A stretch of 64,000 nucleotides of DNA, from the NCBI GenBank assembly GCA_008080735.1, contig SHMW01000004.1:51169-115168 (forward strand). Reading direction: 5' to 3'. The position numbers and the translations under genes are program-made. This document shows, one piece after another, positions 1,164 through 2,879 of this stretch; the first letter of the stretch is position 1, and every line of letters begins with the position of its first letter. The notes under the pieces were generated by a model. It saw only the letters and a list, made by a program, of their open reading frames with translations, was not told the DNA's origin and did not search any database. Source of the DNA: Promethearchaeota archaeon. Lineage in GTDB: Archaea > Asgardarchaeota > Lokiarchaeia > Sigyniarchaeales > SOKP01.

Positions 1164-2879
1164 TTAATATGTTAATTCTAAAAATTGAGCGACTTCTGTC
1201 AAGGATGCTCTATAACGTTTAAAACTATAAAGATCTGGTCCAAATATATGGATTAATTTTTTTATTATCTCATTAGGCGCTTCTTTAGGAAATAGTTTGT
1301 ATTTTTCGTATTTTCTTTCTTCAATTACTATTGCTGATTTCAGCTCAAATAATTTGTTAATTGCTTCAGTATTTGGATAATTCAGTTCCACGGTAATCAA
1401 TTCCCCAGATTGAGGTATTTTTTCTATGAGTTCTTCTTTGGTTCCACATTCTAAACCTTTTTCTGTAATAGTTAGTACCTTATCACAATCAGAAATAATG
1501 GTTTCTGGACCGTGAACTATTAATGCTACATGAAACTCTCTTTTTACATCTTCTAAATATTTCTTAAATTTCTCGTATTGGAGCCGATTTAAAATACCCT
1601 TTGGAAGTGAGAACATAATGATATCAGGAGATTGTATAAGAGCCCGAGCAATACAAAATAGAAAATAATCTAACGCTTTTAAATCAGATACTGTATTTTT
1701 TCTTTTATTATACACTCCCGTAATTTGAAGTGCCCTCTTCCTAAGTTGTCGTCTTTCGCGATAATCCTGTAGAAATGATACGCTTTTCCAAAAAGGTCCT
1801 TTCGTCATCCATTCATCAAACAGAGTTGTAAGCTCAGACTCTCGTAAAATATTCATAAATTCTTCTTTGCTCCGTTGTCCCTTTATCTTTGTTTCCACAT
1901 TATATTTAATCGCCTTTTTCAGCTTCATGCCCGCCATTTTAGAATCAATTGCTTCAGGAACAATGAATATCTTTTCTAAATCCTCTTCAGTGGTTAACTG
2001 AATAAATTTACCGAATATTTTTATAGTACCCGAAAACTGATGGCTTTTTCCTGCGATCGTAGAAAAAAATCTCATTATATTAATCTGTTCTCTACTTGAT
2101 TCTGAGGAACCTTCATATAAAATTCCTAATGATTGTCCTCTCGTAAGCCTAAAACTTATATCTTCCAATTCATCGCTGATTGAGACATCTTCTAATAAAA
2201 GATGTTGATAATTTTTGTAAAAATTCCGAATCTCTAAAATAGATAGAATAATATCTATTAATTCCTCAATTAAATCGATAATATGAGGTGGATTTAACTC
2301 ATCCCAATTTCTAATAATATCTAATTGGGAAAACTCTTCTAGTTTTATTATTCGGGACAGAAAACGTGAGAAATTTATATTTGGTTGAAGCGGGTAATTT
2401 TCAAAATTGATATCCAATTGTACATAAAACCCTGGAAAATAAATTCTTACTCTTCGATGATAAGGTATCTGGTCGAGTTGATAATTCTCAAAATTATCAT
2501 TGAGAAGTTCTAATTCTCTATCTACTTCTTTTAAATGGTGTTGAAATTCCCTCTCGATTAATTTATCAATTCTCTGAATGATTTTTCTTGGACTTATTAA
2601 ACCATCCTCGTCAAAATCCGGTTCGACCAAGATTTCATTAAAATCTACTGTCGTTTCTATTGGGGTATTGATTTTTAATAGTGGAACACCTTTTTCTAAT
2701 ACATCCGTGTTAGTAAAGAATAAAACCTCGATAAAACTTTTTTTATATTCTAAATCTAAAACGGTCGCTAATCCAAAGGTCCCTTGCCGAAAGATTAACC
2801 AATATTTTTCTGAAAACCGAATTGCATCAGTTATTTTTTTTCTGAGAATTTCTAATTCTTCTTTCCTTGTTCTACTCAA
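1164..2879 (-). CDS. UEV/RWD-like domain fused to a degenerate ABC ATPase
   Basis: INFENYPLQPNINF...LDIIRNWDELNPPHIIDLIEEL is an E2/UEV-like pattern without the Cys. The ABC scaffold follows, with eroded Walker A and B (IARALIQSPDIIMFSLP). Start is probably TTG 2879 after GGAGGTG, overlapping the upstream stop (ORF track gives 2927). Confidence 0.65.
   Translation of the reverse strand: MSRTRKEELEILRKKITDAIRFSEKYWLIFRQGTFGLATVLDLEYKKSFIEVLFFTNTDVLEKGVPLLKINTPIETTVDFNEILVEPDFDEDGLISPRKIIQRIDKLIEREFQHHLKEVDRELELLNDNFENYQLDQIPYHRRVRIYFPGFYVQLDINFENYPLQPNINFSRFLSRIIKLEEFSQLDIIRNWDELNPPHIIDLIEELIDIILSILEIRNFYKNYQHLLLEDVSISDELEDISFRLTRGQSLGILYEGSSESSREQINIMRFFSTIAGKSHQFSGTIKIFGKFIQLTTEEDLEKIFIVPEAIDSKMAGMKLKKAIKYNVETKIKGQRSKEEFMNILRESELTTLFDEWMTKGPFWKSVSFLQDYRERRQLRKRALQITGVYNKRKNTVSDLKALDYFLFCIARALIQSPDIIMFSLPKGILNRLQYEKFKKYLEDVKREFHVALIVHGPETIISDCDKVLTITEKGLECGTKEELIEKIPQSGELITVELNYPNTEAINKLFELKSAIVIEERKYEKYKLFPKEAPNEIIKKLIHIFGPDLYSFKRYRASLTEVAQFLELTY

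Follow-up and report, generated by a model that had tools for sequence, protein, structure and literature searches.

What can a subunit of an ATP-binding cassette (ABC) transporter do once its ATPase has lost the canonical nucleotide-binding motifs and carries a head of the ubiquitin-conjugating (UBC) fold? The question is raised by a gene in the window analysed here, a 64,000-nucleotide stretch (positions 51,169 to 115,168) of contig SHMW01000004.1 from the Promethearchaeota archaeon assembly GCA_008080735.1. According to the open reading frame (ORF) list and the translation, window positions 1164..2879 on the minus strand hold one intact gene, with its stop codon at 1164-1166 and a product of 571 amino acids (P0004). 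We think it probable, if by no means certain, that an Asgard-specific ABC-2 (type V-like) transporter encoded by six genes includes this protein as a cytoplasmic, non-catalytic subunit, and that the protein serves there, most likely, as an adaptor. The longest ORF at this position, 1164..2927 (-), starts with a GTG at 2927; homologue N-termini speak instead for the TTG at 2879, at which more than 100 homologues begin and with which the 571-residue product on record agrees. Residue numbers below refer to P0004 and are counted from this TTG. The upstream gene ends 4 nt before the start, and 33 nt separate the stop from the downstream gene. The double-UBC-fold/pseudo-ATPase protein can be divided into four parts, all encoded on the minus strand: D1 (residues 1-112; 2544..2879), a probable first UBC/RWD-like unit delimited by model secondary structure and tandem-RWD matches; D2 (residues 113-222; 2214..2543), a non-catalytic UBC-fold (UEV/RWD-like) domain identified by VIA-align, Foldseek and ESM Atlas; a degenerate nucleotide-binding domain (pseudo-NBD; residues 223-480; 1440..2213), placed by Foldseek, VIA and hhalign; and a C-terminal alpha/beta domain of the DrrA/ABC-2 type (residues 481-571; 1167..1439), supported by hhalign, structure matches and TIGR03522.

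The head was modelled with AlphaFold2 on an alignment of 50 sequences. Over residues 1-224 the mean predicted local distance difference test (pLDDT) score is 86.8, with values of mostly 85-96 over D2, and the model consists of two consecutive units, each arranged as helix, four strands, helix. The first unit comprises helix 5-20, strands 26-31, 34-43, 46-54 and 68-71, and a long helix (97-129) that leads into D2; the second contains strands 131-135, 138-148, 151-158 and 167-170, short helices, and helix 200-215. When D2 (model range ~111-219) was compared with 48,161 PDB chains by VIA-align, all 50 listed best matches were UBC-fold proteins, namely ubiquitin-conjugating enzymes (E2s), UEV domains or RWD domains, with Z scores of 6.1-8.9 and, against single UBC-fold structures, root-mean-square deviations (rmsd) of about 2.6-3.6 Å over ~97-106 residues. 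They include the E2s Ubc8 (Z 8.9, rmsd 2.6 Å, 97 residues), a Plasmodium E2 (Z 8.8) and UBE2E1 (Z 8.4), the UEV proteins VPS37A (Z 8.4), TSG101 (Z 7.5) and Vps23 (Z 7.2), and the RWD domains of GCN2 (Z 8.3) and RWDD2 (Z 7.9). Each of these scores is middling by itself; what gives the modelled similarity its weight is that the entire match list belongs to one superfamily. Foldseek links the model to UbcH5-type E2s with a probability of 0.99-1.00 (21-26% identity, ~118 columns). In the ESM Atlas, residues 113-219 find their best counterpart by shape in a Promethearchaeota cluster labelled 'RWD domain-containing', 75-76% of whose members carry Pfam RWD and UQ_con; BRE-like, FANCL-like and WDR59 (GATOR2 RWD) clusters are matched as well. 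The UEV/RWD-like domain that an earlier, sequence-only reading had proposed at this place does adopt a UBC-like fold in the predicted structure.

D2 is marked by the motif N-F-E-x-Y-P-x-x-P ... W ... P-P-H at residues 158-199 (2283..2408, minus strand), which is defined by conservation. Family-wide residue counts, here and below, refer to 50 close relatives; motif loss was also checked in a diverse set of 18 representatives, with identities as low as 25%. E160, P163, P166 and W192 are invariant, and N158, Y162 (46/50), P197 and H199 are at least 90% conserved. The turn formed by Y162-P163-x-x-P166 is kept in 16 of 17 other, more divergent relatives, and the motif survives at 25-30% identity. 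Judged by sequence, it is the counterpart of two E2-fold features, the YPxxP turn and the W/P start of a helix: like E2s (UbcH5/UBE2D, Ubc8, UBE2E1), UEV domains and RWD domains (GCN2, RWDD1/2), with which it shares its fold at Z 7.2-8.9, D2 has the YPxxP turn between strands 3 and 4 and a Trp/Pro at the start of the next helix. Unlike an E2, it features neither the catalytic cysteine nor the HPN motif, and between strand 4 and the last helix the model has short helices. Residues 1-224 contain no conserved cysteine and no HPN motif in the 50 sequences; the only recurrent cysteine column is position 208 in the last helix (22/50). We therefore consider D2 a non-catalytic UBC fold.

The sequence-only reading had described the stretch VQLDINFENYPLQPNINF...NWDELNPPHIIDLIEEL as an E2 pattern with a glutamine in place of the catalytic cysteine. 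All the strings that it quoted are present in the 571-residue product; this one spans residues 153-207 (2259-2423), contains YPLQP...NWDELNPPH and lies within the region of about 2245-2530 to which it had been assigned. The absence of the cysteine holds for the family, but the glutamine is variable, position 185 being Glu in 25, Gln in 8, Asn in 8, Lys in 6 and Asp in 2 of the 50 sequences. As to the E2-like pattern, the predicted fold agrees with it, but the bare sequence does no better than chance. Pfam UQ_con (PF00179), RWD (PF05773) and UEV (PF05743) gave no match in the 50 members at E<=10, a PF00179 search of the own genome at E<=0.01 did not detect the protein, and Pfam and NCBIfam scans of it returned no significant E2 or RWD match. 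Nothing significant emerged from a profile search of PDB sequences (the best hit, E 0.14 to Rpb8, is meaningless), and hhalign of D1 and D2 found no significant similarity to a single Asgard E2 or to 27 Asgard E2s (E 0.075-0.16), with alignments that fell on the YPxxP/strand-3 region. The likeness of the modelled head to RWD, UEV and E2 proteins is one of fold only.

Conservation peaks in D1, whose all-versus-all identity of 68%, against 49% for D2 and 39-57% for the ABC parts, makes it the likely business end. D1 is a probable further unit of the UBC/RWD kind, on the basis of the modelled topology, tandem matches and weak language-model leads (BRE, UFC1 and RWD neighbours at 0.76-0.83). The top Foldseek ranks are held by tandem proteins, led by FANCL (E 1.2e-3, 213-232 columns) and followed by CENP-O-type proteins, KNL1 and BRE; the tandem-RWD/UEV matches as a group span E values of 1.2e-3 to 6e-3 over 213-247 columns. 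VIA matches across both units were obtained for KNL1 (Z 7.5), the FANCL central domain (Z 7.2) and the Ctf19 complex (Z 6.3). Those to KNL1 and FANCL cover residues 5-214 at Z 7.2-7.5 with a global rmsd of ~10-11 Å, which indicates that the inter-domain geometry differs or that the first domain fits loosely. The comparison that the sequence-only reading had suggested, with the TSG101 UEV, RWD and FANCL structures, thus puts FANCL-type tandem proteins at the top, with TSG101 and RWD domains among the VIA matches. Its idea that the first ~130 residues may be a second RWD-like repeat gains from the topology of residues 5-129 and from the tandem matches, and is probable; the high rmsd and the lack of detectable sequence similarity to D2 speak against it, and a D1/D2 repeat at the sequence level was rejected (hhalign E 0.7).

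Between the helices of D1 lies a near-invariant acidic loop, D-F-D-E-D-G-L-I-S-P-x-K (residues 88-99; 2583-2618, minus strand), preceded by P87 and conserved in the close subfamily only. A DxDxDG calcium loop of the EF-hand type was considered, given weak leads to secretagogin (E 0.51 in the PDB profile search) and to EF-hand_8 (1 of 50 members, E 0.016). We rejected it as a main reading: position 12 is a lysine rather than a glutamate, the loop is lost in distant relatives, and the same stretch aligns with the region of E2s from the Cys-loop to 'WSP', of which, by this alignment, it may be the counterpart.

Tandem RWD/UEV scaffolds provide the closest comparison for the head as a whole: the ELF-DRWD part of FANCL (3K1L, 3ZQS), the KNL1 C-terminal region (4NF9, 8PPR), CENP-O/P (Ctf19/Mcm21) and BRE/BRCC45. 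Proteins of this kind act as interaction scaffolds in multi-subunit complexes. Like them, the archaeal protein has two consecutive non-catalytic UBC-fold units, the first of them probable, with a long helix in between. Unlike them, it carries its tandem fused to an ABC pseudo-ATPase and is encoded in an archaeal membrane-transporter operon, and there is no significant sequence similarity (11-13% identity).

A domain of the D2 type also occurs outside this family, in Asgard proteins of ~560-620 residues with three UBC-like domains. D2 is similar to their central domain (phmmer E 7e-7; hhalign 2.5e-6 and 2.7e-5), and in many genomes a hidden Markov model (HMM) of the D2-type domain matches that domain at E 1e-7 to 1e-11. 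Like D2, it features F.eYP..P ... NWD...PPH. In two such proteins, P0176 and P0199, the other, flanking domains pass the UQ_con and RWD thresholds of Pfam, and the triple-UBC-like family is the single bridge, as far as sequence comparison goes, from D2 to the UQ_con and RWD families. These proteins differ from ours in having no ABC part, a different genomic context and a wider distribution. The own genome encodes one on contig C106 (L005:1162-2850, minus strand; 562 aa), in which two weak, sub-threshold UQ_con matches flank the D2-type domain; no E1, E2 or ubiquitin gene adjoins it.

UEV domains and RWDD3 bind ubiquitin, a ubiquitin-like protein (Ubl) or an E2, and UEV domains may instead take a P(S/T)AP peptide. 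By analogy, one UBC-fold domain of the head could be a receptor for ubiquitin, a Ubl or an E2 and link the transporter with the ubiquitin system of Asgard archaea, for instance in turnover or sorting of the complex. Such a role would be compatible with an adaptor, and the UEV domains of TSG101, Vps23 and VPS37A among the structural neighbours (Z 7.2-8.4) fit it, as do the two canonical E2s, at C118:318-731 and C21:21027-21497, and two ubiquitin-like proteins, at C37:16846-17031 and C21:19304-19468, encoded by the own genome and the recurrence of the D2-type domain beside UQ_con- and RWD-level domains in the triple-UBC-like proteins. We nevertheless hold it to be rather unlikely. No E1, E2 or ubiquitin gene adjoins the operon in five loci, the only related gene being a Prok-JAB gene at the far edge of one of them (L037), and the triple-UBC paralogue likewise lies outside any ubiquitin operon. 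Moreover, ubiquitin binding is not a property of most RWD and tandem-RWD modules (kinetochore, FANCL, GCN2), and likeness in fold says nothing on the ligand.

The C-terminal two-thirds of the protein is a paralogue of the ATPase of the fusion protein encoded directly upstream, with its NBD and C-terminal domain, and has kept the fold. The full-length model has a pLDDT of 86.7 and a predicted TM-score (pTM) of 0.80. Foldseek matches its ABC part to ABC NBDs with E values of 2e-12 and at least 500 matches, and VIA gives Z scores of 17.7-20.0 to ~50 NBD structures; the best is Thermotoga TM_1403 (4yer_A; Z 20.0, 266 residues, model range 223-570), and NosF aligns over 225-571. By hhalign, the operon's own canonical NBDs are matched with 97% probability (E 4e-11) over 310 columns. 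These reach the C-terminus and include a common L-P-x-x-G motif, which shows that the shared C-terminal domain is real, as the sequence-only reading had held; a TIGR03522 (GldA) match extends to position 296 of 301. The resemblance lies beyond standard domain models: Pfam ABC_tran (PF00005) stays below threshold, and the best NCBIfam ABC match scores 27 bits against a cut-off of 308. A poorly conserved insert occupies about residues 313-392 in the helical subdomain. The protein thus resembles ABC-2/DrrA-type ATPases (TM_1403, 4YER; NosF, 7O0Y; the NBD-regulatory units of ABCA1/3/4/7; the NBDs of its own operon) in its NBD fold and C-terminal domain, and differs from them in the helical-subdomain insert, the double UBC head and the loss of all three catalytic motifs.

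The hhalign alignment sets GILYEGSSESSREQ (residues 252-265) at the Walker A position, LKALD at the signature and IIMFSLP at Walker B. In the Walker A-equivalent stretch (residues 252-266, GILYEGSSESSREQI; 2082..2126, minus strand) the P-loop Lys/Ser is missing, and the family shows a variable acidic stretch without GxxGxGK[ST]. LKALD (residues 400-404; 1668..1682, minus strand) stands in for LSGGQ, and the family has L-(T/N/K)-(P/A/Q)-L-(E/D). IIMFSLP (residues 420-426; 1602..1622, minus strand) takes the place of hhhhDEP, with Ser or Phe for the aspartate and Ile or Leu for the glutamate across the family. The Q-loop glutamine position is Glu or Gln. Motif placement and family counts thus bear out the earlier claim of a pseudo-ATPase without the Walker A lysine, LSGGQ and the Walker B Asp-Glu pair. 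P-loop, LSGGQ and Asp-Glu pair are absent from all 18 diverse representatives, among which active relatives with an intact P-loop were sought and none found. In distant relatives the signature is the least eroded motif, reading for example 'LAAGEKRRV' or 'LSNAEKLRL'. Since the motifs are missing from all 50 close relatives as well as from the 17 more divergent ones, the loss is ancient and uniform; and without P-loop, LSGGQ and Walker B Asp-Glu, neither canonical ATP binding nor hydrolysis is to be expected.

The loss of every catalytic motif would suit a relic, that is a duplicated, decaying ATPase gene without function, but we find this hardly credible, and on sequence evidence conservation has effectively refuted it. 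Among 5.8 billion proteins, a word-indexed search found 177 relatives, of which nearly all measure ~570 residues, so the frame has remained intact at identities from 100% down to 25%. With a mean column identity of 59% and 40 invariant residues in the 50-sequence alignment, this is not a decaying gene; its place in the operon is fixed, and the motif loss is uniform rather than random. None of the 177 relatives has a precomputed Pfam domain, and those with a named source all come from Asgard metagenome-assembled genomes (Lokiarchaeota/Promethearchaeota, Hermod- and Hodarchaeota). An exhaustive phmmer search over 1.84 billion cluster representatives gave only 81 matches, with generic ABC ATPases in the tail. 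Among 301 sampled genomes of the phylum, 36 carry full-length matches, all of them in the GTDB family of the window, about half of whose sampled genomes have the gene; one more copy, a distant one, belongs to another GTDB family.

Six genes in the same orientation, of which this is the fifth, encode, in order, a permease, a second permease, a free NBD, a fusion of an alpha/alpha-toroid, transmembrane (TM) helices and an NBD, the protein under study, and a longin-like TM protein. All are on the minus strand. The ABC-2 permeases, at 9896-11035 and 8658-9899, both match Pfam ABC2_membrane_3 (E 1.9e-26 and 2.3e-29). The free canonical ATPase, NBD-A, lies at 6071..7101, its motifs intact and its gene split by an insert. 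NBD-B, the upstream fusion (2872..6000; 1042 aa; Pfam Prenyltrans 4.6e-36, ABC_tran 1.4e-25), consists of a TM helix, a prenyltransferase-type alpha/alpha-toroid of ~650 residues, a second TM helix, a canonical NBD and a C-terminal domain. The sixth gene (330..1130), known from its translation, encodes 266 residues with a longin/roadblock-like N-terminus, about the first 125 residues, and ~4 TM helices. This gene order is the same in five of five loci, two of which have a homologue of our protein of only 25-28% identity, and stop and start codons often overlap. In the genomes present in both samples, our gene and the downstream one co-occur in 28 of 28 target-bearing genomes, and 22 genomes lack both; two apparent exceptions sit at contig ends. 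Both genes lie on one contig ~1.7 kb apart in all but one of the 28, where they are found at contig ends. The fixed operon position fits the regulatory subunit that the sequence-only reading had envisaged.

At each of the five loci, NBD-A and NBD-B retain Walker A, the Q-loop, the signature ([LM]SGGE / LSGGQ), Walker B and the H-loop. Two consensus ATP sites are thus available without our protein, which makes it supernumerary: unlike in the motor pair of an ABC-2 transporter, it is present as a third NBD-like subunit. At every locus the pseudo-NBD profile scores higher with the NBD of the fusion protein (41-54 bits) than with the free NBD (7-35 bits), suggesting an origin by duplication of the upstream neighbour.

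This closeness to the fusion NBD also fits a different arrangement, in which the dead NBD would dimerise head-to-tail with that of the fusion protein and lend a signature-like face to the one ATP site of the latter. This non-canonical site, on binding ATP, could then act as a slow switch by which the TM helix and the outward-facing toroid are moved, while the canonical permease2/NBD-A2 transporter works alongside. In line with such a pair, the fusion gene and ours are translationally coupled (by overlap or 4-nt spacing), the signature partly survives in the distant relatives quoted above, the H-loop histidine is widely kept, and two permeases with one free NBD gene would already make up an entire ABC-2 transporter. 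However, the LSGGQ of the fusion protein is perfectly conserved in five of five loci, which is unexpected if it always faces a dead Walker A, and the signature Ser and Gly-Gly of our protein have gone in the close family (T/N/K, P/A/Q). We regard the asymmetric pair as possible but unlikely.

The adaptor that we favour, whose docking, role and partner we infer, would work as follows. The dead NBD and the C-terminal domain would dock onto the cytoplasmic face of the transporter via surfaces inherited from a real NBD. The double UBC-fold head would act as a platform for protein-protein interaction and recruit or position a partner; the downstream membrane protein, which strictly co-occurs, offers the best candidate in its longin/roadblock-like domain. 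Several points weigh against this. The longin/roadblock assignment of the downstream protein is a weak lead (score 0.81), and the UBC assignment of D1 rests on topology and on tandem matches with the large global rmsd given above, with no sequence similarity detected between D1 and D2. The H-loop histidine is kept in 42 of 50 sequences and the Q-loop and D-loop regions are partly conserved, which could reflect face-to-face pairing with a live NBD instead of a passive anchor. Finally, the model requires that the head have a ligand.

A bolder reading also suggests itself. Eukaryotic cells have membrane-associated scaffolds built of RWD/UEV and longin/roadblock modules, such as GATOR2-Ragulator, ESCRT-I and the kinetochore DRWD pairs. 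The double UBC-fold head and the membrane-anchored longin/roadblock domain might together make up a dedicated platform for signalling or sorting on an archaeal ABC exporter of the lipid type, a prokaryotic precursor of eukaryotic RWD/UEV-longin scaffolds that couples transport to Ubl or small-GTPase input. We give this only a slim chance.

NBDs that have given up catalysis and kept their fold are familiar, and the protein can be likened to CFTR NBD1, TAP1, TM287/288 and PDR-type transporters. Those degenerate NBDs keep their P-loop and bind ATP, and only one composite site is degenerate. In contrast, the P-loop of our protein is gone, and both other NBDs of its operon have the full consensus. 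The building blocks are of known kinds, non-catalytic UBC folds and degenerate NBDs; what appears to be undescribed is their fusion, the completeness of the motif loss and the fixed place in a six-gene ABC system that is confined to Asgard archaea and includes a longin-like membrane subunit. Searches of full-text literature turned up no account of this fusion or operon. The expansion of non-catalytic E2-fold modules (RWD, UEV, tandem RWD) is seen as mainly eukaryotic. In Asgard archaea, Tromer et al. 2019 noted only an RWD-like domain and a UEV-like homologue (PMC6601020), and statements on Asgard E2, UEV and RWD proteins are of a general nature (PMC6601020, PMC10936438). Here, a probable tandem version of the RWD/UEV fold is a constant part of a defined membrane machine encoded by six genes, beside a longin/roadblock-like membrane protein. 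Two folds of the 'eukaryotic signature' kind thereby gain a concrete, genetically delimited set of partners that is fit for joint expression and purification. As an extreme ABC pseudo-ATPase, with all motifs gone and the fold conserved over deep divergence, the protein is also useful for asking what role an NBD scaffold plays without ATP.

Some features of the surrounding genes deserve mention. The ~650-residue toroid region of NBD-B, bracketed by its two TM helices, is rich in N-x-S/T sequons. TM helices and sequon-rich repeats together imply that the toroid faces outward and is wired by one helix to the cytoplasmic NBD. In the NBD-A gene, a 32-nt insert at 6548-6579 (minus strand) lies exactly between Walker B 'LDEPTT' and the D-loop 'GVDA'; it contains a stop codon in frame as well as a hairpin with 9 perfect base pairs, AAATTAATT-atctc-AATTAATTT. 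The NBD-A homologues of the four other loci have DEPTTGVDA uninterrupted. Between the second permease and NBD-A, positions 7309-8510 (minus strand) are occupied by a gene for a TPR-repeat protein of 313 aa and by an ORF of 88 aa; the four related operons lack genes at this position, which suggests that both were inserted locally. In divergent orientation to the ABC operon, 11354-13045 (plus strand) carries a gene for a B12-binding corrinoid protein, followed by one of the URO-D family (methyltransferase-type).

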